This document shows, in pieces, positions 42,285 through 61,830 of a DNA stretch of 64,000 bases. Within the stretch, counting starts at the first letter, position 1; each line of letters begins with the position of its first letter. Source of the DNA: Christensenellaceae bacterium. GTDB taxonomy: Bacteria; Bacillota; Clostridia; Christensenellales; SZUA-584. The position numbers were made by a program, and so were the translations under genes. A model generated the notes under the pieces. That model was not told the origin of the DNA and searched no databases. It was given only the letters and a program-made list of their open reading frames with translations. The stretch is from contig CAXXXL010000005.1 of the NCBI GenBank assembly GCA_963666505.2, positions 15,566 to 79,565 on the forward strand, written 5' to 3'.

Positions 42285-42824
42285 GGAAATTATAGCAACT
42301 AAGTGTATTTTGTAAAGAAAAAGTGTAGCATTTCAATCAACCAATGGATTATTAGTAGTAGTGCAAAGATTCTAAACTAGATATTGATATAATTTCTGTA
42401 TGGTATAATTAACAAAATAGTTATTCTGTATTACACCGAAAATGTCTTCACCGAAAATGTAGAAAACTTGAAAGTTCAAAGGTGTTAAGGCTATTGGGTC
42501 AGCTAAAGATATCTGTATTTGGCGTGCCCCCCAAGAATTGTACTAACTCCAAAGTTAGTATAGAATAAAAAAATACTAATATACAAGCCCGTTACCCTAG
42601 ACAGTTGTTTCTTTGGAAGGTTTGCATTGAAATACTCGGTTCCTTTAGGAGCACGCTTTTTCGCATTAAATGTTTAAAGCAAAACATAAATATCGATTTA
42701 TAACAGGTAATTCTTGACTTATTGAAAGTCGGCTGGGGTACTTGTTCTCAGAGTTGTTTCATTAATTGAATCAAAGAATCTTATAAATGTTATAACAAGT
42801 AAACTAAGATATAGAGGTGTTATT

Positions 42825-44090
42825 ATGAGAAAAAAGTATGAGCCGTATAAAGAGGTCATCAAGTTGATAGATGACACTGCAAGGGTTATGGGGCTAGATG
42901 AGAGCGAGTATATCACACTAAAACATCCGGAAAGAGAACTGACCGTCTCGCTTCCCGTAAAGATGGATGACGGAACTGTAAAGGTGTTTAAGGGTTTCAG
43001 GGTACAGCACTCCAGCATCAAGGGACCGTGTAAAGGTGGTATAAGATATCACGAGAGCGTAGAGATCGAAGAAGTTAAAGCGCTTGCAGCATGGATGACC
43101 TTTAAGTGCGCCGTAGTCAACATACCGTACGGCGGAGCAAAGGGAGGCATCACCGTGGACCCCGCAACGCTTTCAAGGGACGAGCTTGAAAGGCTGACGA
43201 GAAGATATACGGCTTCGATACTTCCGCTTATAGGGCCGGAAAAAGACATACCGGCACCTGACGTTAACACAAATGCTACTGTCATGGGATGGATAATGGA
43301 CACATACAGCATGTTTGCGGGCTATGCCGTTCCGGGAGTTGTTACCGGCAAGCCGATAGATATCGGCGGTTCCTTAGGCAGAAGCGGTGCAACAGGCCGA
43401 GGCGTTATGTTTATGACAAGAGAGATAATGCACAGGCTGGGCAAACCGCTCATGGGAGCAAAAGTTGCTATACAGGGCTTTGGTAAGGTGGGTGCAACTG
43501 CGGCTCAGGCGCTGGCAGACGAAGGCGCAAAGATTATTGCGATAAGCGACGTTTCAGATGGCCTTTTCTGCGAGACGGGGATTGATGTCGGCAAGCTGGC
43601 GGAGTATGCTGCGAACGGCGGCAAGGCAAGGCTGTTCAAAGATTACGAGGAAAACGGCGTAAAGCACATTTCCAACAAAGAGCTGCTTACGGCGGATGTT
43701 GATATACTGATACCGGCGGCGACAGAAAACCAGATCACCGAAGAGATTGCCAAAGATGTTAAAGCTTCTGTAGTAGTCGAAGGCGCAAACGGCCCGACGA
43801 CGATGGAAGCGGACAAGATACTCTATAAAAAAGGCGTGACGCTGGTGCCGGATATTCTGGCCAACGCAGGCGGCGTCGTTGTTTCCTACTTCGAGTGGGT
43901 GCAGAACATACAGTCACTCATGTGGGACATAGAGGAGATAAACAGGGCTCAGGAAAAGATAATGATACGTGCGTTCAACTCGGTCTGGGATCGTGCTCAG
44001 GAGTTAAAGGTCTCGATAAGGACGGGCGCATATGTCGTGGCTATAGACAGGCTGGTAAGAGCAAGAGATATACGTGGTCAGCTGATGTAA
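42825..44090 (+). CDS. glutamate dehydrogenase (Glu/Leu/Phe/Val dehydrogenase family, GluD/RocG/GdhA type)
   Basis: Active-site KGGIRYH, GGAKGG, and the GFGKVG dinucleotide fold. 421 aa. Confidence 0.95.
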   Translation: MRKKYEPYKEVIKLIDDTARVMGLDESEYITLKHPERELTVSLPVKMDDGTVKVFKGFRVQHSSIKGPCKGGIRYHESVEIEEVKALAAWMTFKCAVVNIPYGGAKGGITVDPATLSRDELERLTRRYTASILPLIGPEKDIPAPDVNTNATVMGWIMDTYSMFAGYAVPGVVTGKPIDIGGSLGRSGATGRGVMFMTREIMHRLGKPLMGAKVAIQGFGKVGATAAQALADEGAKIIAISDVSDGLFCETGIDVGKLAEYAANGGKARLFKDYEENGVKHISNKELLTADVDILIPAATENQITEEIAKDVKASVVVEGANGPTTMEADKILYKKGVTLVPDILANAGGVVVSYFEWVQNIQSLMWDIEEINRAQEKIMIRAFNSVWDRAQELKVSIRTGAYVVAIDRLVRARDIRGQLM

Positions 44091-44432
44091 TAACTACGGA
44101 TTAACTGATGTTTTTTGCGAAACCTATTTGACACTATCTATATGCTAAGCGAAAATATAATCAGAAAATGAAAGCGACTGATATTTATTAGTTAACTTAT
44201 CGATTAAGATAGAATCACTAAAATATCGGCCCATCCGCTATGCTCTTTTTTCTGTAATAAAAGATTTATTCTACTTTCGGGCAGCCGTTTCAATTTACAT
44301 TTATAAAAAAGAATTTATAATATTGGAATAATTGACAATTAGTGAAATATAAATGAAAGCGGGTGTGATGTTAGATTAAAAGATAATGTGGCTATTAAGA
44401 TGAATCATCAGAGATAAATACAATAGTTATCC

Positions 44433-44777
44433 TTGACCGCTTTGCCAACTCAGAGGGATACAAGCTCTTACTGGGTTAAGGATATGCGGGAGAGACGGTA
44501 TCTGACTTTTGATATGGAGAACCCTCGTCATCAGAAAGCATTTGAGCTTTACACTGCGCAGTCGGGGAAACTGCGCAGCGAATATGTTGTTGATTGTATT
44601 CTTAAGGTACAGCATGATAACAGGTTAGAGGAGATAATAAGGCAGATCATCAAGGAAGAGCTGAAAAATGTTTCATTTTCTGTTACTGCTTATAAAAGTA
44701 AATCCGAAGATTTACATACAACAGATAAAATATCCGAGCTGCCGGAAGCGCTTATATCGTCTTTAGACGATATATGA
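44433..44777 (+). CDS. small hypothetical protein upstream of the relaxase remnant (possible mobilisation accessory protein)
   Basis: ORF with TTG start. An alternative ATG at 44484 gives MRERRYLTFDMENPRHQKAFELY.... Function is inferred only from its position before a MobV gene. Confidence 0.45.
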   Translation: MTALPTQRDTSSYWVKDMRERRYLTFDMENPRHQKAFELYTAQSGKLRSEYVVDCILKVQHDNRLEEIIRQIIKEELKNVSFSVTAYKSKSEDLHTTDKISELPEALISSLDDI

Positions 44778-44991
44778 ACCATGATGGTTCACATCTTGAT
44801 AGCAGCCGGTGAAAATATGCGCCATGACGGTGCATTTTTTATTCTCAGCGGGTACAATGCGCATATCAAAACGCCGCTGGAAATTGGATTTGCGAAGCAA
44901 ATCATCCGAAGTATTAAGCCTCGCAGAGCCCCGCGGGAAGCGCCCACTTGGCATCTTTGCAGCTTCGCTGAAAGTGTCATAGTGGGTAAAA

Positions 44992-45008
44992 CACTTCCTT
45001 CGGAAGTG
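44992..45008. promoter_or_regulatory. hairpin, candidate oriT inverted repeat
   Basis: CACTTCC-TTC-GGAAGTG lies about 40 nt upstream of the relaxase RBS. Further inverted repeats are CCCACT (44943-44948) / AGTGGG (44981-44986). Confidence 0.3.
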
Positions 45009-45049
45009 CCCGTATTTAAAGCACCGATAAGGAAAGGAGGTGAGGTGAT

Positions 45050-45745
45050 ATATCCAAGGTTGACCGTACAGTTGTAAGAAATAAAGCGTATCCACGCAGT
45101 AACTTTTCTATAAGGGAACGTCATAACGAGCGCAAGAACGAAGTTTATTCCAATCCGGATATCGTACTTGAAAGAAGCAGCCTCAATATCAGTTTTAAAA
45201 GCTGTGAAGGCACATATACGCAGGAATTTGACAAATTACTTGAAGAAGGAATTATCAGTACACGTGGATTAAAACAGGATGCTGATGTATTTGCTGAGAT
45301 GGTGTTCGATGTTAACACTTTGTATTTTGATAAGCACGGAGGATATGAATATGCAAAAGACTTTTTTGCTGAAGCATACCGGATGGTTGTTAAAGAAGCC
45401 GGAGGCGAGCATTATATCCTATCTGCAGTTATGCACGCCGACGAGCGCAACAGGAGCCTCTCGGAGGAGCTTAAACGGGATGTCTATCATTATCATCTGC
45501 ATGTAGTATATATACCCGTTGTGGAGAAAGAAATCAAATGGACTAAGCGTTGTAAGGACAAAGAGCTTGTCGGAACAGTTAAAGAAGTTATTCACCAGGT
45601 AAGCCATTCAAAAAAATGGGCTTCTGTCAAAGCGGTAGATGAGAAAGGAGAGCCAATAATTGCAGAGAACGGTAAAGCAGTGTTAATACCATCGTATTCA
45701 CTGCTGCAGGACAGGTTCTTTGAGCATATGAAGAATTGCGTGTAA
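45050..45745 (+). pseudogene. MobV (Mob_Pre) family relaxase, N-terminal domain only, no canonical start codon
   Basis: Motif I ...IRERHNERKN... and motif III AVMHADERN...YHYHLHVVYIPVV. The frame is open from 45044 but the first ATG/GTG/TTG in frame is at 45299. ATA at 45050 sits 9 nt after GGAGG. About 231 codons, shorter than typical MobV proteins. Confidence 0.7.
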
Positions 45746-46401
45746 AGCCTTAGAAGCTCGCTCAGCGGCTCAAAGTATTTTTCGCATTATTCAGGATATT
45801 TTGGGTATATATGGCCAGTGTGTCTTGATTTATATTTACCGAGAGCAGCGGAATTGCAGGGCTGTGATGAGCTCGGCTATTAGGTTGAAATGATATAAAA
45901 AGATATCTAGCGGATGTTCATTTCATTTAAAAATAATAGATGGTTAAAAACAATAGACGAAAAGTACGATTGGAAGCTAATTTTTATTATTAGTTTGCGT
46001 GCAAGGTAAATGCCTTAGAAGCATGATAAAGTAGCTTAGACGAGTGCATAACCGGTCTTAGAGGATGTTAGACTTAGATAGCGTTTATATTAAAATTATG
46101 CAATTGCTATCAATGAATTAATAGAAAATTTGTTGTTTACGGCTATAAAGACTTGGTTTTATTAACATATGAACATATAATTAAATTATGGTAATAGAAA
46201 CAACTTTTCCTAGTTTAGACTCCGTAAAAAGAATATCGGTACAAATATACAAAAACGAGTTCCATAATAATAAATTATAAAATAATAATTGCATATTTGG
46301 TGAGGAACAGAAAAAATAAGAATATTTATTTTTAATAATTATCTGAAGGCGACTAGCCAAAACGGAGCACAAAAAGATTAAACAGAAAGGAGTGAGAAAC
46401 A

Positions 46402-46560
46402 TTGTTAAAGCTTAAAGAAAAAGCAATACCTACGAAGATTACAAGAGAAAATGTAGAGATATTAATAACCGGGGATTCTGCCGATGAGTTGATAAAGGAT
46501 ATAGACTTTGCTATAGATAGGTTAGTGATGATAAGAGACTTCCTGCTTACAGAGAAGTAA
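46402..46560 (+). CDS. possible 52-aa protein (below ORF-track cutoff)
   Basis: AAAGGAG lies 8 nt before the TTG. Sequence MLKLKEKAIPTKITRENVEILITGDSADELIKDIDFAIDRLVMIRDFLLTEK. No homology support. Confidence 0.25.
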   Translation: MLKLKEKAIPTKITRENVEILITGDSADELIKDIDFAIDRLVMIRDFLLTEK

Positions 46561-47199
46561 GGCACAGAAAAATATAGAATATATAAACATTAAAATACTC
46601 AGGCTATGGGTATATTTTTTTCCTTTGCATTGAGAATATTATTCCTTGCTTTCGATCTCGTCAAAATATTTAAGTAAAATAAATTCAATAAGATTAGTCA
46701 TAGAGCGATGCTCTTCTTTGGCTAAACTTTCATCTTTGCATGTAAGAAGTAAAAAAATTGGAAGAGCAACTACTTTTTCTTGTACGAAAAGTTATTTTGT
46801 GGTATTATTATATGAGATTATGTTTATAAATAGCTATACGAAAAATATCGTCTCTTTTGTTTTTAAAGCTATTCTTTTTTATAAGAACCAACTATAATTT
46901 GCATTAAAGAATATTTTGGGAAGTACAATATAAACTTAAAACCATTTACTAAATCATATGGTAAATAACCTTGTATTAGATACTCTAACATACTGACAAA
47001 ATAATGGTAAATATATATTTTGTAACAACATGTTACTGTTCAAATGATTGTTTCCGCGAAGATACTCACTTGTTATTTCGAAAGCTCGATTAATATTTCA
47101 AAGCTGCCAGTTATTACGCATGAGTATAAAAAATGCCCCAAATTGTTTATTCCAAAAAACTATATTGTACTAATAGATAAATGGTTGAGGAGGTAAGCG

Positions 47200-49524
47200 A
47201 TGCCTAATTTTGATAAAACTACAAAATTTATCAAGCCAGAGATATTTTCCGGTTCTGATATTCTGTTGAGCATTTTCATTGGGGATAAGCCTCCGACTAT
47301 TGTTGATCTTCGGGGATATAAGTCAAATACCGTTCGATTTGGCCGAACAGAAAATAACAATGACTTTGTGATTGAGTCAAGTTTTGTATCACGAAATCAT
47401 GGATATTTTAGAATTAAAAACAACGAGCTGTATGTGCAGGATTTGGACAGTACTAACGGCATCTTTATTAACGGCTCATTGATTACGGAAGAGAGGCTGC
47501 TGTCAGATGGAGATGTTCTAAGAATTGATGATCCTGTTAATCCCAACAAAAAGGGTGTACTGATTATTTATTCAAAATCTTTTGCTAAGACTCAGTGGGA
47601 AACATACAAGATTACGGATGAAGAAACAATCAGAATAGGCAGGGATCCATGCTGTGAAATCCGCCTTAACCATATAAGTGTTTCAAAAATTCACGCAATT
47701 ATAAAAAGAGAGGGCGATTCCTTCTATATAGAAGATAATAACAGCACAAATGGATTAAGCGTTAACGGAGAAACAATCACTAAAAAAACAAGGCTAAATG
47801 AAAAAGACCTGATACTTATAACCAATTCAAAAATCACCTTTACTTCAGTCGGCATAAGTTATTTTTGTTATCGCTATGGTATAAGTCTTGCTGCATCCAG
47901 GCTGAACAAATTTGTCGGGCGAAAGAAGAGCAAAAGGAAAATATTAAACGACGTATCGGTTTGCATAAAGCCCAATGAGCTGGTTGCAATAATTGGCGGT
48001 TCGGGAACTGGTAAAACAACTTTTATGAACTGTGTATCAGGATACAACAAAGCAACTTCGGGAGATGTTTTTGTAAATGGCGAGGAGCTTTATGCTAATT
48101 ATGGTATCATAAAAAGCATAATTGGTTTTGTACCTCAAAAGGATATTGTATATGACAATCTTACCCTGAATGATATGCTGAAATATAGTGCTTTGCTAAG
48201 AATGCCAAAGGACACCACAGAGGCTGACAGGGATGAGAGGATAAAAGAAGTAATAAGTCTTGTACAGCTTGAGGGCAGAGAAAACACATATATCAATAAG
48301 CTGAGCGGAGGTCAAAAGAAGCGTGCGAGTATTGCCGTTGAAATGCTGTCGGATCCTAATTTGTTCTTCCTTGATGAGCCAACTTCAGGGCTTGACGCTG
48401 GCACAGAATATAATCTCATGAATACACTTCGGAAGATGACTGACATGGGGAAAACCATAATTTTAGTAACTCATAGCACCTTGTATCTAAATATGTGTGA
48501 CAAGATTGTACTACTAGGGCGTGGGGGAAATCTGTGTTTTTACGGTTCACCACAGGAATTGTTTGACTTTTTCGGCACAAAAGATTTTGCACAGGTCTAT
48601 CTTGAAACTGATTCAAAGCCCGATCTCTGGAAAAAGAATTTCAAAAAAATGGCCAGAGCAGAATATGAGGCCCCCGATATTTCAGTAAATAAAGTGAAAA
48701 GAAAGAAGGCTAACAAAAAAGCATCCGGTTTAAGGCAGCTTCTAATTCTTTGCAGAAGGTATCTTAAGCTTATGGTAAACGACAGGCTGCGTATGCTTTT
48801 GCTTATCTTCCAGGCTCCTTTATTAGCTTTATTGCTGTTCCTGGTAGTGCTGGGTAATGATGAGGTTTATGTGGAGTTCCCCTTTACAAAATCAATTTTA
48901 TTTGCTCTTTCATGTTCTGCTTTTTGGCTTGGGACATTGAATGCTATCCAAGAAGTGTGCAAGGAAAAGGTTATATTAAGGCGGGAGTACATGAACGGGC
49001 TTAGGCTTACTTCATATATTTCTTCGAAATTTATAAACCTGGGTCTTCTTTGTTTATTGCAATCGGTATTGATGGTGACTTTGTTTTCAGTTTTGGTCGG
49101 AGCTCCTAGGGAAGGGCTGCTCTTCGGCTCATCAGCCTATATAGAAAATCTTATCACAACTTTCCTTACAACCTTATCAGCCGTCGGCCTTGGGATAATG
49201 GTATCTTCAATATTTACAAACGCAGACCGGGTAATGGCACTTGCACCTCTTTTACTGATTCCTCAGATACTTTTTTCCGGAGCCTTATTTGATGCTGAAG
49301 GCGCAAGAGAGTATGTTTCCTATTTCATTACCTGCAGATGGGCAACCGATGCATACGGAACCACAACCAATTTAAATAATATGGAAGGCGTATATGGCTC
49401 TTCGGGATTTTTCACACAGACTTCAGAGCATCTTTTAACAGCATGGGGAGTTTTGCTGGGTTCTGCTGTTATATTCGTAATTCTGTCGATATTCTTCTTA
49501 AGAAAAGAGCTGAGAGTTAGATAA
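47200..49524 (+). CDS. ABC exporter with two N-terminal FHA domains (FHA-FHA-NBD-ABC2 membrane domain)
   Basis: FHA1 about aa 44-112 (VRFGRTENNNDFVI...SRNHGYF...STNGIFINGSLI). FHA2 about aa 143-213 (IRIGRDPCCEIRL...SKIHAII...STNGLSVNGETI). Walker A GGSGTGKTT, signature LSGGQKKR, Walker B LFFLDEPTSGLD, and six C-terminal TM segments. RBS GAGGAGG. Confidence 0.9.
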   Translation: MPNFDKTTKFIKPEIFSGSDILLSIFIGDKPPTIVDLRGYKSNTVRFGRTENNNDFVIESSFVSRNHGYFRIKNNELYVQDLDSTNGIFINGSLITEERLLSDGDVLRIDDPVNPNKKGVLIIYSKSFAKTQWETYKITDEETIRIGRDPCCEIRLNHISVSKIHAIIKREGDSFYIEDNNSTNGLSVNGETITKKTRLNEKDLILITNSKITFTSVGISYFCYRYGISLAASRLNKFVGRKKSKRKILNDVSVCIKPNELVAIIGGSGTGKTTFMNCVSGYNKATSGDVFVNGEELYANYGIIKSIIGFVPQKDIVYDNLTLNDMLKYSALLRMPKDTTEADRDERIKEVISLVQLEGRENTYINKLSGGQKKRASIAVEMLSDPNLFFLDEPTSGLDAGTEYNLMNTLRKMTDMGKTIILVTHSTLYLNMCDKIVLLGRGGNLCFYGSPQELFDFFGTKDFAQVYLETDSKPDLWKKNFKKMARAEYEAPDISVNKVKRKKANKKASGLRQLLILCRRYLKLMVNDRLRMLLLIFQAPLLALLLFLVVLGNDEVYVEFPFTKSILFALSCSAFWLGTLNAIQEVCKEKVILRREYMNGLRLTSYISSKFINLGLLCLLQSVLMVTLFSVLVGAPREGLLFGSSAYIENLITTFLTTLSAVGLGIMVSSIFTNADRVMALAPLLLIPQILFSGALFDAEGAREYVSYFITCRWATDAYGTTTNLNNMEGVYGSSGFFTQTSEHLLTAWGVLLGSAVIFVILSIFFLRKELRVR

Positions 49525-50330
49525 TGAAATGCCAACTGGATTCAGCATGTATAAGTCACATCGGAACAGTTAGAAAAACGAATGAGGATAATATCTTTTT
49601 CAACGGTACATATCTTGAAAAAGATAATATAGGAACCCGCAATATATTGACAGATACTGTTAGCTGCAGGCAAGGGGCGATTTATGCGGTATTTGATGGA
49701 ATGGGGGGAGAATCAAGTGGCGAATGGGCATCTTTTTTAGCTGCGGCTCAGATGTACAAAGCTGCGAGTAAAAGATTGAGTATTAACGAAATAAAAGAGT
49801 TTCTTTTATCATATGCACATCAAGCCAATGAACGAATTTGTGAGACAATGCGAGTGGAGAATATCTCCAGAATGGGAACAACAGCAGCCATTGTATATAT
49901 TAAGAACAACGAAGCTACAATCATGAATATTGGTGATAGCCGGGTTTATTTACTTGGGGAAGAAGGCATCGAAATTTTATCAGTTGATCATACTGATGTG
50001 AAATTGATGCAGCAGTCAGGCATAAGCAGACCGCCGAAACTTACCCAGCATCTTGGCATATTCCCTGAGGAAATGATAATAGAGCCGCATATCATATCCA
50101 CGCAAATAAGTGAAGGAAACAGAATGATGATATGTAGTGACGGATTATATAACGCACTTTCAAAGGATGATATCCGGGAGTTGATGGGACTTGAAACGGT
50201 TGCATCTGAAACTGTGGATTTAATGGTTAATGAAGCCTTGCAGAAAGGCTCAAAAGATAACATAACTGTTATTGTAATTGATATAAAGAGAGAAAAATGC
50301 TCTTTGAAAGGGAAGAATCATGGACAATGA
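49524..50330 (+). CDS. PP2C-family Ser/Thr protein phosphatase
   Basis: NEDN, VFDGMGG, GTTAA, NIGDSRVY, CSDGLYN and GSKDNITVIVIDI motifs. The start overlaps the upstream stop (TAATG). Confidence 0.9.
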   Translation: MKCQLDSACISHIGTVRKTNEDNIFFNGTYLEKDNIGTRNILTDTVSCRQGAIYAVFDGMGGESSGEWASFLAAAQMYKAASKRLSINEIKEFLLSYAHQANERICETMRVENISRMGTTAAIVYIKNNEATIMNIGDSRVYLLGEEGIEILSVDHTDVKLMQQSGISRPPKLTQHLGIFPEEMIIEPHIISTQISEGNRMMICSDGLYNALSKDDIRELMGLETVASETVDLMVNEALQKGSKDNITVIVIDIKREKCSLKGKNHGQ

Positions 50331-52944
50331 AAAATTCCGGGAGGAACAAGAAAAGGTATGGAATGGCTGGTTAATTGAAGGATTAATCGGTGAAGGAAGC
50401 TATGGGAAGGTATATAAGATTTCAAGAACCGATCATGGCCACAAGTATTTTTCTGCAGTCAAAATAATATCCATCCCATCAAAGGATCAATATCGAGAAG
50501 CTGTCAATACTTTAGGGCGAGATAAAGATTCGTTAAAAGATTATTTCATAGACATGGTCGATGAAATAATAGGTGAAGTCAACATACTGTATTCTTTAGC
50601 TGGCCATAGTAATATTCTGGGATATTTTGACCACAAGATAATTGATCACGGCGACGATGTTGGCTGGGATGTTCTTATAAGAATGGAATATGTCAAATCG
50701 CTCAGGAAACATCTTAAAGAAAAACAGATGACAAGGGGGGATGTTATTAGCCTTGGTATAGATATCTGCAATGCACTGGAGGTGTGTTCAAAGAAGGGCA
50801 TCGTGCACAGGGACATCAAAGATGAAAATATATTTGTAAACAATGAAGGGATATTCAAATTAGGCGATTTTGGCATAGCCAAGATTGCTCAGGATCGCAG
50901 CATGGCTTCGATGAGAGGCACGCCCCTATACATGGCGCCTGAAATATACAAGGGAATTAAGTATGATGCCAGGATAGATATCTACTCACTCGGATTGGTT
51001 TTATATAAACTGCTGAACGATGATAGGATGCCATTTCTTCCGGAGTATCCGAAACCAATAAGGTTCAGAGATAATGAAAAGGCTATTGAAAAAAGAATGT
51101 CAGGAGAAACCATGCCGCTGCCTTCAAAAGCTCAGGGAAGCCTTGGGAAAATAGTACTTAAGGCCTGCGATGTCAATCCTAATAAACGGTATAATTCAGC
51201 AAGGGAATTAAGGGAAGAGCTACAGACAGTACTGAACAACATGGAAGAGAGGTTCAAGAATGAGGCTATAACTCATACTATTGATGAAGATATAGAGAAT
51301 ATACCCGTCGCTGACAAAACAGAAAGTATTATTACTAATAATAATGAAAAGACAGAGGAAATATCCATTAGCGAAAAACAGCCTGACAAAACTGAATTGA
51401 TAAGCAATAAACCTGTAAAGAAAGCAGCGTCAGATAAAAAATCAAAGCAACTCAGCAAACGAGTTATTGCCGCTATTTCTGCTGCTGGCGCCATATTGCT
51501 TGCCGGCATAGTAATTATAGTTCTATGGCTTACAGGTGTATTATTTAACAATAGCGCTGAAAAAGATAATGCCCAGGTAACGCAGGGAGCGCTTACAGCA
51601 GAACAGCAGCAGCTATTGCAAAGTTTGCGCAGTGATCAATGGGTGTATTCTGAATCGTCATACAGAACGAAAGAAGTTATTGGTACTTCCTACGAAAACT
51701 TTGTAGCCTTCGGCGCTGATGGCATTAAATTTTATGATAACATGGAAATGCGTGATTTCTCTCTTGTTTCCGGAGTAGCTGCCTTTAATACTGCAAAAGA
51801 ATACAGTATTGATAATTTCGATGGCAAAGACTATGCGGTCGTTTTTATTGAAGAATGCGATCACTACGGGAAAGACTACGAAGTTAATGCAAACTATTAC
51901 ATTAATGAAGACGGAAGCCTGGTCGAGTTTATTGTCTTCGTAGATATGGATACTGACGAGGCATACTTGGTTTCCAACTACAATATATTTATTCCTCTTT
52001 CAGAGTATGACCAGGATGTTTCAATACAGCAGGATAGTGAAGCTTCGCAGGAGAACGAAACATCGCAGGAAACTGAAGCGCCGCATTATGATAATGCACA
52101 GAAACAGGTTTTTATCGATAAACTTTGTGGCGGCAAGTGGACATATCACGGTTCAGACCCGACAAACATAGACCTTACCGGGACGGATTATGAAAACATT
52201 ACTCCGGACGGAATTATTGTCTTATCATTTGAGGAAAACGGCGAAGGTACTGCAAGCTTAAAAAATGAAGGGTTTGGGGACATTGTTTATAGCGAAAGGT
52301 TTGATTATGAGATCGGCTTTGATGAAACAGATTCCATTTTCTATGCGTATATTTGGCTTGAGGATTACGAGCATAATGGCGTTTTATATCATGTGTATAC
52401 ATATTTCTATTTTGAACAGGATGAACTTGTCGAATTTGTAGCTTTTACTGATATCGAAACCGATGAATGGTTCCTTGTTTCAAATAATAATATCTATTAT
52501 AAGGAGCTGGAGGAATGGCCACAAGTGCTTTGGAGCGGCGATTGGTATTATGTAGGTACTTTCAATAACACGCAAGAGCTTTTTGAAAGCCCAGTAATCT
52601 CAGGAACAAAATATGAAGACATTACACCAATAGGCAGAGATGTATTGACATTTGACCCGGATGGAACGGTGTATGGGATTTCAGAGGATTTTGATACTGG
52701 AGAAGTGATTTGGGAAGGAGAATATGAATACTATTTCCACGAAACGATATCGGAGCTAATATACATTATATTCGGCGAGTATGAATTTAATGGAGTTATA
52801 TACGAAGTATATCGTGATTTTTGGTATGGTGAAGGAACGATAGTAGAGCTCGTATATATGAGAGACACAAACACCGGTGAGTTCTATATAGCATCAAATC
52901 ACAACAGGTATTCGCAAGATGAAAACTTCGAGGCAACTGAATAA
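50320..52944 (+). CDS. transmembrane Ser/Thr protein kinase with triple-repeat extracellular domain
   Basis: Hanks motifs GEGSYGKVYK, AVK, HRDIKDENIF, DFGIAK and YMAPE. TM segment about aa 382-408. About 465-aa ectodomain with three ~135-aa repeats. It overlaps the PP2C gene by 11 nt. Confidence 0.9.
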   Translation: MDNEKFREEQEKVWNGWLIEGLIGEGSYGKVYKISRTDHGHKYFSAVKIISIPSKDQYREAVNTLGRDKDSLKDYFIDMVDEIIGEVNILYSLAGHSNILGYFDHKIIDHGDDVGWDVLIRMEYVKSLRKHLKEKQMTRGDVISLGIDICNALEVCSKKGIVHRDIKDENIFVNNEGIFKLGDFGIAKIAQDRSMASMRGTPLYMAPEIYKGIKYDARIDIYSLGLVLYKLLNDDRMPFLPEYPKPIRFRDNEKAIEKRMSGETMPLPSKAQGSLGKIVLKACDVNPNKRYNSARELREELQTVLNNMEERFKNEAITHTIDEDIENIPVADKTESIITNNNEKTEEISISEKQPDKTELISNKPVKKAASDKKSKQLSKRVIAAISAAGAILLAGIVIIVLWLTGVLFNNSAEKDNAQVTQGALTAEQQQLLQSLRSDQWVYSESSYRTKEVIGTSYENFVAFGADGIKFYDNMEMRDFSLVSGVAAFNTAKEYSIDNFDGKDYAVVFIEECDHYGKDYEVNANYYINEDGSLVEFIVFVDMDTDEAYLVSNYNIFIPLSEYDQDVSIQQDSEASQENETSQETEAPHYDNAQKQVFIDKLCGGKWTYHGSDPTNIDLTGTDYENITPDGIIVLSFEENGEGTASLKNEGFGDIVYSERFDYEIGFDETDSIFYAYIWLEDYEHNGVLYHVYTYFYFEQDELVEFVAFTDIETDEWFLVSNNNIYYKELEEWPQVLWSGDWYYVGTFNNTQELFESPVISGTKYEDITPIGRDVLTFDPDGTVYGISEDFDTGEVIWEGEYEYYFHETISELIYIIFGEYEFNGVIYEVYRDFWYGEGTIVELVYMRDTNTGEFYIASNHNRYSQDENFEATE

Positions 52945-53215
52945 TCTGTATTTAGCGTTGCTGCATTAAATATGCATTGCCGGCACAAATTCCGGGACGG
53001 CGCAAGGCAATAGCCTGAATAAAAACAACAAACTGTTTTTGTGTACGCTTTTACGACATATAAAAACAACCAATTCTTTTCGTTTATACGAAAACACCTT
53101 ATAAAAACATCAATATTACATGCTAAAACCCTTCAAAAATATAAACGAAACGTTGAAAGGGTTTTCTTTTGTACCTATAATATGATTATACATATTATGG
53201 AAGGTGGTTGTTATT

Positions 53216-53809
53216 ATGATATACGGATATGCACGATGTTCAACAAACGATCATAAACAGGACATAGAGCAACAGATTGATTTACTAGTGTTGAGAGGGG
53301 TTCCGCAAGATAACATCTATTTTGAGTATCAGAGCGGTGTTAAGAAAGATCGCATTCAACTTAATAGATTATTAGACGCTTTGAGCGAAGGTGATACAGT
53401 TATTGCTACAGAGGTTAGCAGGATAACAAGAAGCACCAAGCAGTTATGCGAAATCATCGAGATTGCATTAGAGAAAAAGCTATGCCTGATATTTGGCACG
53501 TTCAAAGTTGATTGCAGCACAGAACTTGATCCTATGACAGAGGGAATGATCAAAATGATGGGCGTGTTCAGTGAGCTTGAACGGAACATGATAAGCCAAA
53601 GAGTCAAAAACGGGATAGCTCATGCTCGTAGCAACGGAAAGCAAATAGGTAGAAAGTCAACAACAAAAGATGATATACCTCAGGCGTTCTATAAGCACTA
53701 TCCTATGTTTATACAGGGTAAGATCAATAAAAAAGAGTATGCTCGGCTATGTGGATTGTCATATCCGACGATTTACAAGTATTTAAAAATATGTGCTTAT
53801 AATGCATAA
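53216..53809 (+). CDS. small serine recombinase (resolvase/invertase family)
   Basis: MIYGYARCSTNDH catalytic-serine motif, resolvase core, and C-terminal HTH (YARLCGLSYPTIYKYLK). Confidence 0.9.
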   Translation: MIYGYARCSTNDHKQDIEQQIDLLVLRGVPQDNIYFEYQSGVKKDRIQLNRLLDALSEGDTVIATEVSRITRSTKQLCEIIEIALEKKLCLIFGTFKVDCSTELDPMTEGMIKMMGVFSELERNMISQRVKNGIAHARSNGKQIGRKSTTKDDIPQAFYKHYPMFIQGKINKKEYARLCGLSYPTIYKYLKICAYNA

Positions 53810-53954
53810 ACATACGAAAGGTAAATAAATAATATCGGGATAATATGTTAATATATTACGACCTCTATTTGCATAAAAACAAAATAAAATGAATATATAT
53901 GCAACAATATGATATATAATATTAATTTTATGAAATAATATTCATGATTTTGCA

Positions 53955-53983
53955 TTGACAGGATGATTTCTTGGTGCTATCAT
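53955..53983 (+). promoter_or_regulatory. sigma-A-type promoter
   Basis: TTGACA (53955-53960), 17-nt spacer, TATCAT (53978-53983). Confidence 0.4.
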
Positions 53984-54057
53984 ATAAGAGAAATAATTTA
54001 AAAATCAATATCATTTCTGGGATGAAAAGCCAACAGACGATAAAATGTCTGCGTGAA

Positions 54058-54127
54058 GCCCCAGAGCAAATCTATGGAGAAGATACGTTCCAAGCTCCAG
54101 AAAATTTGCTCTGGGGCTATTTTATTT
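54058..54127 (+). terminator. long hairpin plus U-tract (intrinsic terminator / attenuator)
   Basis: GCCCCAGAGCAAAT (54058-54071) pairs perfectly with ATTTGCTCTGGGGC (54104-54117). There is an inner TGGAG/CTCCA helix. TATTTTATTT follows. Confidence 0.55.
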
Positions 54128-54281
54128 CAAATATATTGATTTTAGTCGACAAGGAATAGAGGTGAAAAGTATGTAGAGTATTAATAAAACATGAGCTCAG
54201 TTAACTCGAGCTAAAGACAATATCACTATGAGATATAGAGAAGGACTTATCGAAAAAATTATCGATATAAGGAGAAGGATA

Positions 54282-54515
54282 ATGATAATGAACAAAAATT
54301 TAATTAATAGCTTTAAAGAATTTTTTAATCGAGAGCTAGACAAGACGACGATTTTTAATGCTGATTTTTTTGACTCAATTCCAGCAGAATTTCATGATTA
54401 TATTTACGTATATTCAATAAAAGAATTTAACGGTATTTACTATTTTGGCGTTTTAGATTTACCGATTGGGGAATTGATACCATTGAAAGAAGCTAGAATT
54501 AGAGGGTTATTATAA
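54282..54515 (+). CDS. hypothetical small protein
   Basis: AAGGAG RBS then ATG at 54282 (MIMNKNLINSF...). Tightly packed with the following genes. Confidence 0.45.
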   Translation: MIMNKNLINSFKEFFNRELDKTTIFNADFFDSIPAEFHDYIYVYSIKEFNGIYYFGVLDLPIGELIPLKEARIRGLL

Positions 54516-54662
54516 ATGCAGAGTATTAGAGAGTCTGAAATCGCAATATTAAACAATGAAGATATTATTGATAAAATTATCATTGATAATATCATGTTGG
54601 ACAGAAGAGCTATAAAAGCTATCCTTAAAACGCTTGAAGAGAATATTGAGGAGGATATTTAA
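54516..54662 (+). CDS. hypothetical 48-aa protein (below ORF-track cutoff)
   Basis: The ATG comes directly after the previous stop. Its own stop overlaps the recombinase ATG (TAATG). Sequence MQSIRESEIAILNNEDIIDKIIIDNIMLDRRAIKAILKTLEENIEEDI. Confidence 0.35.
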   Translation: MQSIRESEIAILNNEDIIDKIIIDNIMLDRRAIKAILKTLEENIEEDI

Positions 54663-56347
54663 TGAATAACGCTAGAGATAGTGTAGCTACTGCCAAATTG
54701 CGGGCAGTAGCCTATACAAGATTTTCATCAACAATGCAGAGTGATGGCAATTCTATAGAAGCGCAGCTATCCGCAATATGCGATTATGCAAAGTGCGAAA
54801 ATATGATATTGGTCGGCGAATATACTGATCGTGCAAAATCAGCTGTGACGGACGACAGACCAGAATTCCTGCGTATGATCGAAGACGCGAAGAGCAATAA
54901 GTTTGATATCGTAATTGTGCACAAACTTGACCGTTTTGCTCGAAATAGATATGATTCTGCAATGTATAAACGCGAACTAAAAATGAACGGGGTTCAAGTT
55001 ATGTCTGTTACTGAACGTCTTGATGGCAGTCCTGAATCGGCTATACTTGAAAGCGTTATTGAAGGGATGGCAGAATATTACTCCAAAAACCTTGGACGTG
55101 AAACAATGAAGGGGCTTGTTGAGAATGCAAAAAAGGGTCTTTCGACTGGGGGACCACCGCCGTTTGGTTTCCGGACAAATCCGGAAACAAAGAAGCTTGA
55201 GTTGCATGAAACGGAAGCTAAGGGTATAAAGCTGATATTTAATATGATCCTTGAAGGAAATAGTTATCGGGAAGTTATAACAGAGTTAAACGAGCAAGGG
55301 TTCAAGACACGTGCGGGCAGACCTTTTGTAACTACCTCGTTGTATTCGATATTGAGGAATGAAAAGTATCGTGGTTGCTACGTCTTCAATAAGTCCGCAT
55401 CGAAGGACATGAACGGTAAGCGCAACGGACATCACTATAAGAACGCTGAAGACATCATCAGAGTCGAAGACGGTTGCCCACGGATCGTGTCGAATGAAGA
55501 CTTCTTCGCTGTACAGAAGAAGATGAACACAAGGCAACATCCGAAAAGCCACGCCGTTTATAAAGAAACGTATTTATTGACAGGCAAAGTTTACTGCGGC
55601 TTGTGTGGCAGCACATACATTGGGTCTCGGCGTAAAAAAGGAAGCAGCAAAAGCTGGTGGGCTTATTATGGGTGCGGGCAGCAATCACGTAATAAAGTAG
55701 AACGGTGTAGTAACAAAGTGATTAGCCGAGACCATCTTGAAGGAGTCGTACTCGACAATATTGCTAAGACCGTATTCTCTGAAGCTATGATTCCGAAATT
55801 GACGGAAGCATATAACGAGTACTTAAAAGGCGACGGCAGCGGAAACAAGGAGTTAACGACGTTGAAGAGGCGGCTAGCTAAGCTCAACAGCGATGTTGAC
55901 TATTTAGTTGAGGCCCTTCTTGAACACAAGTCAAACTCGCTCTTTTCCAAGCTGGACAAGCTGGAAGATAAGAAGCAGGAGCTGGAAGCAAAAATATATC
56001 AAATGCAGCTGTTGAAGCCGGTGAAGTCGGTGAGTGAGCAGGACATCGCCAAGGCCTTTGAGCAAATAAGAAAAAAACTGCTGAGCGGAAAGCTCGAAAA
56101 TGTACGGCAGATTATCGAAGTGTACGTTGACCGCATAGAGGTCTATCCAGACCGTGCCGTCGTGCAGTTTAACTACATGCCGAAGGTCACATTGCCAAGG
56201 CTCAGACCGCCGAATAATGCAAAAATTAAAGAAGAAAGCTCCAACGCCTCTAAAACGAATGAGCTTTCTTCTGACAAAGACCCAAAAAATATGGGTCATT
56301 TTGGCGGAGCGAAGGGATTAATACCCGAATTTTTTGAATGGGACTAA
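54662..56347 (+). CDS. large serine recombinase (resolvase domain + recombinase domain + Zn-ribbon/coiled coil)
   Basis: AVAYTRFSSTMQ catalytic-serine motif, VHKLDRFARN, Cys cluster CGLCGS...YGCG...C, and a C-terminal coiled coil. Confidence 0.9.
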   Translation: MNNARDSVATAKLRAVAYTRFSSTMQSDGNSIEAQLSAICDYAKCENMILVGEYTDRAKSAVTDDRPEFLRMIEDAKSNKFDIVIVHKLDRFARNRYDSAMYKRELKMNGVQVMSVTERLDGSPESAILESVIEGMAEYYSKNLGRETMKGLVENAKKGLSTGGPPPFGFRTNPETKKLELHETEAKGIKLIFNMILEGNSYREVITELNEQGFKTRAGRPFVTTSLYSILRNEKYRGCYVFNKSASKDMNGKRNGHHYKNAEDIIRVEDGCPRIVSNEDFFAVQKKMNTRQHPKSHAVYKETYLLTGKVYCGLCGSTYIGSRRKKGSSKSWWAYYGCGQQSRNKVERCSNKVISRDHLEGVVLDNIAKTVFSEAMIPKLTEAYNEYLKGDGSGNKELTTLKRRLAKLNSDVDYLVEALLEHKSNSLFSKLDKLEDKKQELEAKIYQMQLLKPVKSVSEQDIAKAFEQIRKKLLSGKLENVRQIIEVYVDRIEVYPDRAVVQFNYMPKVTLPRLRPPNNAKIKEESSNASKTNELSSDKDPKNMGHFGGAKGLIPEFFEWD

Positions 56348-56423
56348 AAAAGAATAATTACTTCAAAAAACGGGATTTTTAAGTGCCAAATTAAGAAATC
56401 CGTGAAAAAAAGGAGTAATTTTC

Positions 56424-57332
56424 ATGAAAAACACACAAATCACCGGTAACGGTGATAACATTCTGTCCAATTTATTAATTTCAAAATTAAAACCATTTCC
56501 AAAACATCCATTTAAAATGTATGACATTGAGAAGATGCTTGGATTAGCAGACAGTATAAAGGAACAAGGAGTTGTAGTTCCAATACTCGTTAGACCTATT
56601 AAAGACAATAGGTATGAGTATGAGATCATTGCTGGTCATAACAGAGTTCAAGCATCAAAACTGGCAGGTATTGATAAAATACCATGTAATATTCGAGAGA
56701 TGGATGATGAGACCGCAACAATATTAATGATCGATACAAATCTTCAGCAGCGAGAAACAATACTACCGTCTGAAAAAGCATGGGCATATAAGTATAAACT
56801 TGAAGCTCTAAAATCACAGGGAAAACGAAACGATTTAACTTCGTCCCAACTTGGGACAAAGTTAAGAGCTGACGAATGTATTGCTGAGAATAGCCAAGAA
56901 AGCAGGAATCAAATTCAGCGGTATATCAGACTTACAAACCTATTGCCTAAATTACTTGATAAAGTAGATGAACGAAAGCTAGCGTTCATACCAGCCGTAG
57001 AATTATCCTATCTTACAAAAGAACAGCAAAACTGGCTTTATGACATACTTTCTCGTGAAGAGAAATTTGGTATACCTGTAAAGCAAGCAACAAAGCTAAA
57101 AGGCATTAGTCAAAGCGGTAATCTTACATATGATAAAATTGATAATATAATTGTGCAGAAAAGCCATGAACCGCCGAAAGCAATAAAAGTTCCATACAAA
57201 GCGATAAGAGGCTTTTTTCCTCCAGATACAACACCAAAGGAATTTGAGGAGACTATTCAAAAAGCTTTGACAGAATACTTTAAAATTCATTCTGGAAAGC
57301 AAAAACGGAATTTATCTGCGATAGAAAGATAA
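56424..57332 (+). CDS. ParB/Srx N-terminal-domain protein (mobile-element type)
   Basis: ParB-box-like VVPILVRP...YEIIAGHNRVQASKLAG. Confidence 0.8.
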   Translation: MKNTQITGNGDNILSNLLISKLKPFPKHPFKMYDIEKMLGLADSIKEQGVVVPILVRPIKDNRYEYEIIAGHNRVQASKLAGIDKIPCNIREMDDETATILMIDTNLQQRETILPSEKAWAYKYKLEALKSQGKRNDLTSSQLGTKLRADECIAENSQESRNQIQRYIRLTNLLPKLLDKVDERKLAFIPAVELSYLTKEQQNWLYDILSREEKFGIPVKQATKLKGISQSGNLTYDKIDNIIVQKSHEPPKAIKVPYKAIRGFFPPDTTPKEFEETIQKALTEYFKIHSGKQKRNLSAIER

Positions 57333-57520
57333 AGGAGTGTCAATTATGACTCTCTTTTTAAATACAAAAATTTTATGCTAACGGATGTACACAGCTATAA
57401 TCAAATCAAATCTAGATAAAAAATAATCAAAGATTTTCTTATGTAATTCTAATATCTGTTTAACTATTCTCTAAAATTCTACATGTATCATAGCGTTATA
57501 TTAAAAACGAGGTAAGTAAA

Positions 57521-59978: not shown

Positions 59979-59983
59979 TGCAT

Positions 59984-60952: not shown

Positions 60953-60968
60953 AAATGGAGTGATAATA

Positions 60969-61724: not shown

Positions 61725-61830
61725 TAAAAGCTTGTTTCGGGATATCGGTGAACACGGATGCGGTGTCTGCATAATGATTTACAGGCATCGCATTTCGTGG
61801 TAATATATAAACAGTGCGGAGGAAAACGTA

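Follow-up and report, generated by a model that had tools for sequence, protein, structure and literature searches.

A three-gene clostridial operon joining a tandem-FHA ABCG-type transporter, a PP2C phosphatase and a receptor Ser/Thr kinase: a proposed phospho-switch for export

The window, i.e., the whole stretch of 64,000 nucleotides that was analysed, contains at positions 47200-52944 a three-gene operon that is translationally coupled, as read from its sequence, and that encodes an FHA-FHA-ABC half-transporter, a PP2C phosphatase and a receptor Hanks-type Ser/Thr kinase. We consider it probable that the locus is a self-contained Ser/Thr phospho-signalling operon controlling an ABCG-type exporter, a clostridial counterpart of the Rv1747/PknF pair with a different switch geometry. 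Most likely, the kinase and the opposing phosphatase switch the ABCG-type pump on and off, and the phosphate switch probably sits elsewhere than in Rv1747/PknF. This operon design is common yet unstudied in gut Clostridia. The literature searches turned up no characterised analogue other than Rv1747/PknF, in agreement with the first-pass annotation; Rv1747 is phosphorylated by PknF, and both of its FHA domains bind its phosphothreonine peptides (PMC3138270).

The three open reading frames lie on the plus strand and overlap end to start, occupying about 5.7 kb. The ribosome-binding site GAGGAGG (47187-47193, +), read off the sequence, is located 6 nt 5′ of the ATG of the transporter gene (47200-49524, +; 774 aa), which was delimited by its open reading frame and assigned from Pfam, the AF2 model and Foldseek. 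It is followed by the gene for a cytoplasmic PP2C Ser/Thr phosphatase (49524-50330, +; 268 aa; Pfam and motifs) and by the receptor kinase gene (50320-52944, +; 874 aa; Pfam and alignments to solved structures). At the first junction (TAATG, 49522-49526), the TAA stop and the ATG start share one nucleotide, and the second junction is an 11-nt overlap, ATGGACAATGA, at 50320-50330. The frames and both overlaps are exactly as described in the first-pass annotation, whose domain calls were likewise borne out by Pfam matches far above the curated cut-offs in all three proteins. According to motif reading and structure alignments, the catalytic residues are intact in the ATPase, the PP2C protein and the kinase. 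A promoter and terminator scan of 45700-53300 yielded background-level counts, with no convincing terminator 3′ of the kinase gene, and an exact-protein look-up of the transporter, GDH and kinase of the window returned no identical protein on record. The phosphatase carries a generic PP2C domain (Pfam E 4e-16) and has PstP, PppA and Stp1 as its closest solved structures, to which the DGMGG, GDSR, SDGL and DNxT motifs were aligned; the RKTNED motif was read from the translation. These features agree with the PP2C phosphatase that had been proposed, and the protein scored 150.8 bits against the NCBIfam Stp1/IreP model (NF033484), under the equivalog cut-off of 230 bits.

The transporter matched two FHA domains (E 2e-35), ABC_tran (2e-27) and ABC2_membrane (9e-16) in Pfam, and its AF2 model has a pLDDT of 88.2 and a pTM of 0.84. 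FHA-1 (residues ~22-125; 47263-47574, +) and FHA-2 (residues ~134-223; 47599-47868, +) were both delimited by Pfam, PDB alignment, conservation and AF2; the former bears G48, R49, S64, H67, S84 and N86, and the latter G147, R148, S162, H165, S182, T183 and N184. FHA-1 was aligned in the PDB to Rv1747 FHA-2 and GarA. The phosphothreonine-pocket residues of both domains (G48/R49/S64/H67/N86 and G147/R148/S162/H165/N184) are invariant or near-invariant family-wide; the canonical Arg/Ser/His set, whose lack had been named as counting against the original interpretation, is thus present in both domains on alignment. The NBD (47887-48654, +; ABC_tran at residues 249-396, motifs and PDB alignments) includes Walker A GGSGTGKTT, the Q-loop, the signature LSGGQKKR, Walker B FFLDEP and the H-loop VTHS, all invariant in homologue alignments A1 and A3. 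It precedes an ABC-2/ABCG-type membrane domain (48727-49518, +) with helices at residues 510-773, assigned from ABC2_membrane (residues 512-710), AF2 and the ABCG fold, so that Pfam and AF2 describe a half-transporter in which the NBD and a six-helix ABC-2-type domain follow each other in one polypeptide. The best Foldseek matches of the model were ABCG2, G1, G5-G8 and G25 (E ~1e-25, TM-score at most 0.84), which supports the ABCG-like core that had been suggested. This fold suggests that the substrate is hydrophobic or amphipathic, such as a lipid; considered together with the Rv1747 precedent, the transported molecule may, by analogy, be an envelope lipid or glycolipid, a hydrophobic metabolite or an antimicrobial relevant to gut ecology.

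Ahead of FHA-1, which starts at residue 22, the AF2 model and conservation define a flexible N-terminal tail (residues 1-20; 47200-47259, +; N-F-D-K-T7-T8-K-F10) with a pLDDT of 54-58 and no secondary structure. Thr7 was found in 111/111 tailed homologues, with the consensus [FLY]-[DNE]-[KR]-T-[TVM]-x-[FY], this good conservation being limited to the ~50%-identity transporter clade examined. Position -3 is occupied by F39/L38/Y12, position -2 by D60/N24/E22, position -1 by K or R and position +3 by F65/Y29/I7 and also M. Based on this pattern, Thr7 is proposed as a candidate phospho-acceptor and FHA ligand, and the motif could instead serve in membrane or partner binding. One clade without the tail also lacks Arg49 of FHA-1 and retains Arg148 of FHA-2, a hint that the tail would bind the FHA-1 pocket, although the two losses were probably a single evolutionary event. 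Across 80 genome loci, nine of which could not be anchored, the kinase rate was ~70% both with and without the N-terminal motif, the regex and start-codon calls being crude for divergent proteins.

The kinase was matched by Pfam Pkinase at residues 20-294 (E 4e-40), and among solved structures PknB, Stk1 and StkP come closest, with HRD, DFG and GT..PE aligned, as would be anticipated for the Ser/Thr kinase claimed initially. Against the NCBIfam Stk1/PknB model (NF033483), it scored 164.4 bits over the kinase domain only, with a cut-off of 450 bits, and no PASTA repeat was matched by Pfam. The juxtamembrane segment (residues ~300-380; 51217-51459, +), identified by sequence, contains [DE]-K-T-E-x-I at T334, T345 and T358, i.e., three motifs compared to 0.08 expected from shuffling; the ortholog P0122 also bears three, and the 29 transporter-adjacent kinases together have 14 compared to 1.0 expected. 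The tail motif of the transporter and the three DKTExI motifs share one consensus, [DE]-[KR]-T-x-x-hydrophobic. Since this pattern is enriched in kinases not adjacent to a transporter too (6 compared to 0.9 expected), it represents a general trait of these kinases and is not specific to the pair. T334, T345 and T358 are proposed as candidate sites of autophosphorylation and FHA docking. A hydropathy scan placed a single transmembrane helix at residues ~381-413 (51460-51558, +), with the positive cluster KKSKQLSKR on its N-terminal, cytoplasmic side and ~460 extracellular residues after it, so the extracellular part attributed to the kinase holds for a single-pass receptor. In the ectodomain, a beta-barrel-like unit of ~125 aa, rare and uncatalogued, occurs three times (residues 436-559, 602-728 and 737-866; 51625-52917, +); the copies were defined by repeat alignment and HMM units and are 27-35% identical to one another. 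A word-indexed homologue search with the ectodomain returned nothing and was superseded by exhaustive HMMER, which recovered 17 relatives among 1.84 billion representative proteins; Pfam returned no match, and no solved structure is close. The AF2 model is all-beta with a pLDDT of 94.6 and suggests, weakly, a general beta-barrel likeness to calycins and lipocalins. Lipocalin membership itself was rejected on Foldseek E-values of at least 0.011 and TM-scores of at most 0.50.

In the mechanism that we propose, an extracellular ligand, possibly small and hydrophobic, would bind the three beta-barrel-like repeats and render the kinase active. The active kinase would autophosphorylate its juxtamembrane [DE]-K-T-E-x-I motifs and phosphorylate Thr7 in the transporter tail F-D-K-T-T-K-F, and the resulting phosphothreonines would be read by the rigid FHA-1/FHA-2 tandem. 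One FHA domain, probably FHA-1, would bind the phosphorylated Thr7 tail of the transporter itself, either on the same chain or on its partner in the homodimer, while the other would dock on the kinase. The FHA module would then shift relative to the NBDs and alter transport activity, and the co-translated PP2C would remove the phosphates and reset the pump. The likely direction is activation, by analogy with Rv1747 only, the function of which is positively modulated by phosphorylation (PMC3138270).

At least 584 species-representative genomes, the majority from Clostridia, contain full-length relatives of the transporter. The first-pass annotation had implied that the architecture is rare; instead, both the architecture and its association with kinase and PP2C genes are widespread in Clostridia, though uncharacterised. 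Among 58 related loci with enough flank, a contiguous same-strand kinase gene was present in 25 (43%), a contiguous kinase and PP2C in 12 (21%), and both genes within 10 kb in 27, a linkage between transporter and kinase across genomes far above chance. For approximately half of the transporter homologues, a kinase gene was missing from the surrounding 10 kb, so some of them must be controlled in trans or not in this way at all. With T, P and K denoting transporter, PP2C and kinase, the orders P-K-T, T-K, K-T, K-P-T and T-P-K were observed. The T-P-K order of the window is uncommon; it recurs with orthologous PP2C and kinase genes in two metagenomic contigs (L085 and L086), with which DNA homology starts at the ribosome-binding site. 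The ectodomains of the partner kinases vary across loci and include LRR_5, TPR, NPCBM, SBP, SH3 and DUF5050. In some genomes, the transporter is situated within large multi-kinase, multi-FHA clusters.

These clusters, which suggest a wider network, also bear on the possibility that the signal runs the other way. The FHA tandem might mainly dock the transporter on the autophosphorylated kinase juxtamembrane segment, and the transporter, as a co-sensor or scaffold, would then inform the kinase of substrate flux or of the state of the envelope, the real targets of the kinase being elsewhere; the logic would be like that of Bce-type transporter/sensor-kinase pairs, and we judge this unlikely. In its favour, the juxtamembrane segment holds three FHA-type docking motifs, which are enriched across adjacent kinases, and freely varying kinase ectodomains fit a transporter acting as the constant partner of many sensors. 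However, reverse flow leaves the invariant Thr7 tail motif of the transporter unexplained, the sole experimental precedent is a kinase regulating a transporter, and no other obvious kinase target is encoded in the operon. Reverse flow is compatible with the phospho-switched exporter that we favour and does not exclude it.

A switch built as in Rv1747 itself was also considered, in which the kinase would phosphorylate inter-FHA threonines and FHA binding there would drive oligomerisation or activation. In Rv1747, T150 and T208, located between or just before the FHA domains, are phosphorylated and bound by both FHA domains (PMC3138270). The first-pass annotation had described a Thr-rich linker joining the FHA domains of the window transporter; the peptide in question, KTQWETYKITDEET, is present at residues 129-142 and extends into the first FHA-2 strand, four threonines occur in the inter-FHA segment, and 79/119 homologues have a Thr or Ser at position 135. 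A regulatory role for this segment is nevertheless not borne out by its fixed length, its mostly beta-strand character and its unconserved threonines. The segment is 27 aa long in 114/119 homologues with W133 invariant, AF2 places strands at residues 120-125 and 134-137 on either side, and ~8 joining residues form the connector (residues 126-133, ending at W133; 47575-47598, +; delimited by the AF2 strands and segment length), whereas Thr131, Thr139 and Thr143 lack conservation and residue 135 is part of a beta-strand. The conserved FHA serines S64 and S162 are 98 aa apart, compared to 201 residues between S47 and S248 in Rv1747 (PMC3138270), which leaves no room for a disordered phospho-linker. 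We therefore regard an Rv1747-style linker switch as very unlikely here.

The operon lies, as noted at first pass, between a mobilisation remnant and a recombinase module. On one side, a truncated Mob_Pre (plasmid recombination enzyme) frame is located at 45299-45745 (+; Pfam, profile positions 84-182 of 196), and on the other, outside the operon as well, Pfam identified a resolvase (53204-53809, +), a large serine recombinase (54662-56347, +) and a ParB_N protein (56424-57332, +). Recombinase and IS genes also flank the operon in L086, and a recombinase homologue was nearby in only 1/84 related loci. Megablast of 44100-57400 against a plasmid collection returned no match and a scan of viral contigs no transporter relative; when direct or inverted repeats were sought at the borders of the operon or of the island, only short matches at chance level emerged. 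The whole window gave nothing when scanned with Rfam and for tRNAs, so by these searches it holds no riboswitch and no tRNA integration site. In an empty-site comparison with two loci whose GDH is 93-94% identical (L087 and L088), homology was limited to the GDH gene and both flanks were non-syntenic. The flanks are no more than suggestive of a mobile origin of the operon. A tentative and rather doubtful extension of our reading is that of a portable ligand-gated export cassette, consisting of calycin-like sensor repeats, a Hanks kinase and an ABCG-type pump switched through a DgcB/GarA-like N-terminal Thr7 tail read by a rigid tandem FHA, that moves between Clostridia with recombinase-rich islands. 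If true, it would represent a second, mechanistically distinct form of FHA control of ABC transport beside the disordered-linker and clustering mode of Rv1747, and the kinase would be driven by extracellular beta-barrel sensor repeats of a class not described before.

The same flanking recombinase and Mob genes, together with PADLOC matches on the kinase (mad6, 3e-51, and many PD-T4-6 models) and on the ATPase (mad3, 2e-29, and mad8) and a sub-threshold match to NCBIfam MADS6 (NF047741; 98 bits, cut-off 460), could be taken to indicate an anti-phage or abortive-infection cassette in a mobile island instead of a regulated exporter. We rejected this as the main explanation and hold it to be extremely improbable: the PADLOC matches do not extend beyond the generic domains of the kinase and the ABC ATPase, the operon and its surroundings yielded no further MADS component, PADLOC having been run on the operon itself, the ABCG-type membrane domain of the transporter is complete, and the relatives of the transporter, rarely near a recombinase and absent from the viral contigs and plasmids searched, are overwhelmingly chromosomal and beside housekeeping genes such as rplU-rpmA-obg in L003.

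The solved type V half-transporters ABCG1, ABCG2, ABCG5/G8 and AtABCG25 share the NBD-then-TMD order of the window transporter, with ~570-600 aligned columns, TM-scores that reach 0.84 and a sequence identity of just 19-25%; the window transporter scored 242.6 against the ABCG family model TIGR00955, below the cut-off of 736, and is bacterial with an N-terminal tandem FHA module that the solved ABCGs lack. As in the Firmicute pairs Stp1/Stk1, PrpC/PrkC and IreP/IreK, the PP2C gene is situated directly 5′ of a membrane Hanks kinase gene and overlaps it. In contrast to Stp1/Stk1-type pairs, both window proteins are well under the NCBIfam equivalog cut-offs, the kinase has an unrelated rare repeat as ectodomain instead of PASTA repeats, and the pair shares its operon with an effector of its own that bears FHA domains.

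The tail, in turn, resembles those of Bdellovibrio DgcB, Corynebacterium OdhI and Mycobacterium GarA, in all of which an unstructured N-terminal extension with a conserved Thr directly precedes the FHA domain; in GarA, it bears the ETTS motif (PMC5448819). The experimentally solved self-ligand peptide of DgcB, L-E-K-pT-S-I-V, has hydrophobic residues at -3 and +3 and an acidic residue at -2 (PMC6733907), and F-D-K-T-T-K-F, known here from sequence, has a like layout at these positions. The window transporter differs in its two tandem FHA domains, where those proteins have one, and in its output, an ABC exporter and not a diguanylate cyclase (FHA-GGDEF in DgcB) or an enzyme-binding adaptor.

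Rv1747 and the window transporter both combine two N-terminal FHA domains with canonical phosphothreonine pockets, an NBD and an ABC-2-type TMD in one polypeptide, and in both cases a Hanks kinase gene belongs to the same operon. FHA-1 of the window aligns to isolated Rv1747 FHA-2 (6cah; E 1e-5), a sequence comparison with that domain alone. In contrast to Rv1747, the clostridial family lacks the ~100-residue disordered inter-FHA linker and equivalents of T150 and T208, and it bears an extra N-terminal tail of ~20 residues with an invariant Thr motif, the first FHA serine being residue 47 in Rv1747 and 64 in the window transporter. The window operon includes a dedicated PP2C, whereas the two-gene pknF-Rv1747 operon is described without a phosphatase; the window kinase bears a large repeat domain on its extracellular side; and the hosts are Clostridia and Actinobacteria, respectively. 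Control of ABC transporters by FHA domains and Ser/Thr phosphorylation is known in outline only, from one mycobacterial protein with a long disordered linker that hinders structural work. The clostridial family offers a compact, confidently modelled FHA tandem in at least 584 species, many of them gut commensals, and a single sharply conserved candidate phospho-site; with writer, eraser and reader in one operon, the window opens this regulation to biochemistry and cryo-EM. In Clostridia, export is probably often controlled by Hanks kinases, a theme that has been overlooked, and the sensor domains of the partner kinases are swapped freely.

The operon comprises three genes on the forward strand, namely an FHA-FHA-ABC half-transporter at 47200-49524 (774 aa; two Pfam FHA domains, ABC_tran and ABC2_membrane), a PP2C phosphatase at 49524-50330 (268 aa; Pfam PP2C), and a Hanks-type Ser/Thr kinase at 50320-52944 (874 aa; Pfam Pkinase). 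All Pfam matches of the three products were far over the curated thresholds. The transporter and PP2C genes meet in a TAATG at 49522-49526, the PP2C and kinase genes share an 11-nt overlap from ATGGACAATGA at 50320-50330, and a ribosome-binding site read from the sequence (GAGGAGG) is situated 6 nt before the first ATG of the operon. The first-pass annotation had placed three ORFs with overlapping stops and starts at these positions and had claimed the same domains; every particular was confirmed. A 16-nt inverted repeat (49588-49603/49615-49630; 94% complementary, 11-nt spacer) lies inside the PP2C coding sequence, in its 5′ portion. Upstream of the operon, an AT-rich segment of 1.45 kb (45746-47199; GC of approximately 32-34%) contained no substantial forward-strand ORF, Rfam match, or tRNA, and is a candidate promoter/regulatory region or decayed element.

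In the transporter, the phosphothreonine-binding pocket is kept in both FHA domains, as G48-R49, S64-x-x-H67, and S84-T-N86-G in FHA-1 and as G147-R148, S162-x-x-H165, and S182-T183-N184-G in FHA-2. These positions align with those of Rv1747 FHA-2 (6cah), GarA, and EmbR and were invariant or nearly so in sets of 20 and 119 full-length homologues. The nucleotide-binding domain (NBD) bears the Walker A, Q-loop, signature, Walker B, and H-loop motifs. An AlphaFold2 model of the transporter obtained from 119 sequences was confident (pLDDT 88.2, pTM 0.84), and its NBD-TMD core matched ABCG2, ABCG1, ABCG5/G8, and the plant ABCG25 (E ~1e-25, TM-score ≤0.84). One homologue, P0007 (1024 aa), carries an additional N-terminal FHA pair, so that its ABC core is preceded by four FHA domains.

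The PP2C aligns with PstP, PppA, and Stp1 and retains DGMGG, GDSR, SDGL, and DNxT, and the kinase aligns with PknB, Stk1, and StkP and retains HRD, DFG, and GT..PE; both fall outside the Stp1/IreP and PASTA-kinase equivalog families. The kinase has a single transmembrane segment at about residues 381-413, with a positive cluster N-terminal to it and some 460 residues beyond, in agreement with the extracellular part previously attributed to it. This ectodomain contains three repeats of about 125 aa each, encoded at 51625-51996, 52123-52503, and 52528-52917, with a mutual identity of 27-35%. It had no match in Pfam or in a word-indexed search; when 1.84 billion representative proteins were searched exhaustively, only 17 relatives emerged, namely P0122 (the orthologous kinase from the metagenomic contig L086), predicted lipoproteins, and zinc-ribbon/TM-anchored proteins. 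An extracytoplasmic location of the repeat fits with the lipoprotein and TM-anchored relatives, and the repeat represents a rare extracytoplasmic domain family that is uncatalogued. P0122 has two repeats and additional C-terminal sequence without a Pfam match. The AlphaFold2 model of a single repeat was all-beta and very confident (pLDDT 94.6); its best PDB matches, to lipocalins, anticalins, FABPs, and avidins, were weak (E ≥0.011, TM-score ≤0.50), and the modelled repeat may be termed a calycin-like barrel, without close relatives among solved structures. Kinases next to the transporter in other loci have LRR_5, TPR, NPCBM, solute-binding protein, SH3_3, or DUF5050 ectodomains, or none recognisable; thus, it is the sensor that is exchanged, while the transporter-kinase(-PP2C) core stays constant.

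The juxtamembrane region of the kinase bears three [DE]-K-T-E-x-I motifs (T334, T345, and T358; 0.08 expected by shuffling), as does that of P0122, and the pattern [DENQ]-[KR]-T-x-x-hydrophobic was observed 14 times in 29 transporter-adjacent kinases, versus 1.0 expected. From their sequence, these DKTExI motifs are likely kinase autophosphorylation sites. The transporter family, for its part, has an N-terminal tail of about 20 residues, with little order in the model (pLDDT 54-58) and a sequence that varies apart from one motif, [FLY]-[DNE]-[KR]-T-[TVM]-x-[FY]. Its threonine, Thr7, was kept in 111 of 111 tailed homologues, with F/Y/I/M at +3, K/R at -1, and D/N/E at -2; the transporter tail and the likely autophosphorylation sites therefore share one consensus. 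The layout of the tail motif is that of the N-terminal self-ligand of DgcB, L-E-K-pT-S-I-V, whose structure was solved in complex with its own FHA domain and which has in common with OdhI hydrophobic residues at -3, +2, and +3 and Glu at -2 (PMC6733907). It also parallels the ETTS motif within the unstructured N-terminal extension of GarA (PMC5448819). Among the eight tail-less homologues, R49 of FHA-1 is replaced by Ser in four (P0038, P0054, P0058, and P0078) and R148 of FHA-2 is kept in all; position 49 is R or K in 108 of the 111 tailed proteins. The four R49S proteins probably form one clade, and the loss of tail and arginine in the same proteins hints at co-evolution of the tail and FHA-1.

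The evidence supports an ABCG-type exporter controlled by a receptor kinase/PP2C pair. A ligand on the ectodomain repeats would activate the kinase, which would phosphorylate both the DKTExI sites of its juxtamembrane region and the tail residue Thr7 of the transporter. The rigid FHA tandem may then bind both phospho-sites, with FHA-1 probably engaging the tail and the other FHA domain the kinase; the FHA module would thereby be shifted relative to the NBDs, altering transport activity, and the PP2C would reset the system. By analogy with Rv1747 and the ABCG fold, control may act in the direction of activation, and the substrate may be a lipid or hydrophobic molecule. A role for the transporter as a co-sensor or scaffold for the kinase is compatible with this model.

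A rival possibility is phosphorylation of the segment between the FHA domains, which the first-pass annotation had described as a Thr-rich linker. The Rv1747 residues phosphorylated by PknF, T150 and T208, are situated between the FHA domains or shortly ahead of them; the T150/T208 phosphopeptides are recognised by each of the two FHA domains, and phospho-ablation attenuates function (PMC3138270). However, the conserved FHA serines are 201 residues apart in Rv1747 (S47/S248) and 98 in the window transporter (S64/S162). The inter-FHA segment (reference positions 120-147) has a fixed length of 27 residues in 114 of 119 homologues, contains an invariant W133, and is modelled by AlphaFold2 as two beta-strands with about eight connecting residues, and its Thr131, Thr139, and Thr143 are not conserved in homologues. 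The segment is therefore not an Rv1747-like phospho-linker, and its phosphorylation is disfavoured.

The transporter had 5744 database matches at E<1e-10, and when each species was represented by a single genome, at least 584 genomes contained a relative. Cultured carriers in the census include Clostridium sp. AF37-5 (L071) and Dorea phocaeensis Marseille-P4003 (L057). The best 120 of the 5744 matches were all full-length FHA-FHA-ABC proteins (the closest 75% identical, others approximately 50%) from Lachnospiraceae, Oscillospiraceae, Acutalibacter, Herbinix, and similar MAGs. The gene neighbourhoods of the best 80 loci were surveyed with the window kinase domain and PP2C as probes, and the gene orders (T, transporter; P, PP2C; K, kinase) were P-K-T in 10, T-K in 10, K-T in 4, K-P-T in 3, and T-P-K in 1. 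Both flanks extended for 3.5 kb or more in 58 of these loci; among them, a Hanks kinase was contiguous on the same strand in 25 (43%), kinase and PP2C were both contiguous in 12 (21%), and both lay within 10 kb in 27 (47%). In one of the 10 P-K-T loci, the transporter gene was immediately followed by an FHA-kinase fusion. Such fusion genes (681 aa) were located directly downstream of the transporter at L003:10357-12402 and L006:12342-14399, in chromosomal loci beside rplU-rpmA-obg that also carry an upstream PP2C and a kinase with an LRR_5 ectodomain.

The T-P-K order of the window was found again in two further metagenomic contigs, L085 and L086, which makes the trio a recurrent module. In L085, the transporter is 75% and the PP2C 63% identical, with overlapping stop and start, and the L086 cassette (L086:5512-13696) shows 76.6% DNA identity over window 47187-52016, a stretch that begins at the ribosome-binding site and closes with the first ectodomain repeat. 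The L086 transporter is split into three ORFs, by long-read frameshift errors or as a pseudogene. In Clostridium sp. AF37-5 (L071:300-22023), an FHA-FHA-ABC gene is situated inside a single-strand phospho-signalling supercluster of about 22 kb, preceded by genes for PP2C, FHA, VWA-FHA, kinase, PP2C, FHA, FHA, and kinase proteins and followed by those for an unknown protein, a kinase, a PASTA kinase, two further kinases, an FHA protein, and a Zn-ribbon protein. Similar superclusters occur in seven Lachnospiraceae loci (L029, L031, L043, L046, L064, L074, and L083), and the window operon looks like a minimal version of them.

The operon lies, as previously noted, between a mobilisation remnant and a recombinase module: a truncated Mob_Pre ORF (45299-45745) on the left, and on the right a small resolvase (serine recombinase; 53204-53809) and a large serine recombinase (54662-56347) in tandem on the same strand, followed by a ParB_N protein. 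This combination suggests a decayed mobilisable element. Also in favour of mobility, a serine-recombinase fragment and an rve-type IS integrase border the cassette in L086, and the window, L085, and L086 have mutually unrelated flanks. The GDH gene (42781-44090) shares 93-94% protein and 85% DNA identity with the two closest relatives, L087 and L088, where homology covers no more than this gene and breaks off precisely at its stop codon, with a housekeeping gene downstream in the relatives. Neither GDH flank is syntenic, a sign of rearrangement around the gene, and since synteny is broken upstream as well, these relatives offer no clean empty site. Likewise against mobility or neutral to it, searches gave no bounding repeats of the operon or island, no tRNA in the window, and no plasmid or viral matches; the GC content was unremarkable, and a recombinase homologue was nearby in just 1 of 84 related loci. 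At a DNA identity of about 75%, the three T-P-K cassettes are old orthologues and no recent transfers. For this sub-lineage, the evidence for a mobile origin is no more than suggestive. The reading of the operon as a defence cassette is disfavoured. The region downstream of the recombinases (57521-62991) encodes a second ABC-2 system, made up of ABC_tran, two ABC2_membrane_2 components, and, between these two, an Ig-like/NPCBM_assoc protein; beyond it come a TSP3-repeat protein and a protein with metallo-beta-lactamase and lamin-tail domains.

The pairing of an FHA-ABC transporter with a kinase is, as such, no surprise for specialists. The family is widespread in gut Clostridia, its regulatory module is compact and amenable to modelling, and it offers a single candidate phospho-site; the gating of an ABC pump by FHA domains thereby becomes directly testable. 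Literature searches found no characterised FHA-ABC/kinase system in Firmicutes and returned mycobacterial work only, which leaves Rv1747/PknF, as first proposed, the sole well-studied likeness. The two systems have in common the tandem FHA domains, the ABC-2 half-transporter, and an operonic Hanks kinase. In contrast to Rv1747/PknF, the window system lacks the disordered phospho-linker; its additions are a dedicated phosphatase, a DgcB/OdhI/GarA-type motif in the N-terminal tail, and a sensor domain that is rare.
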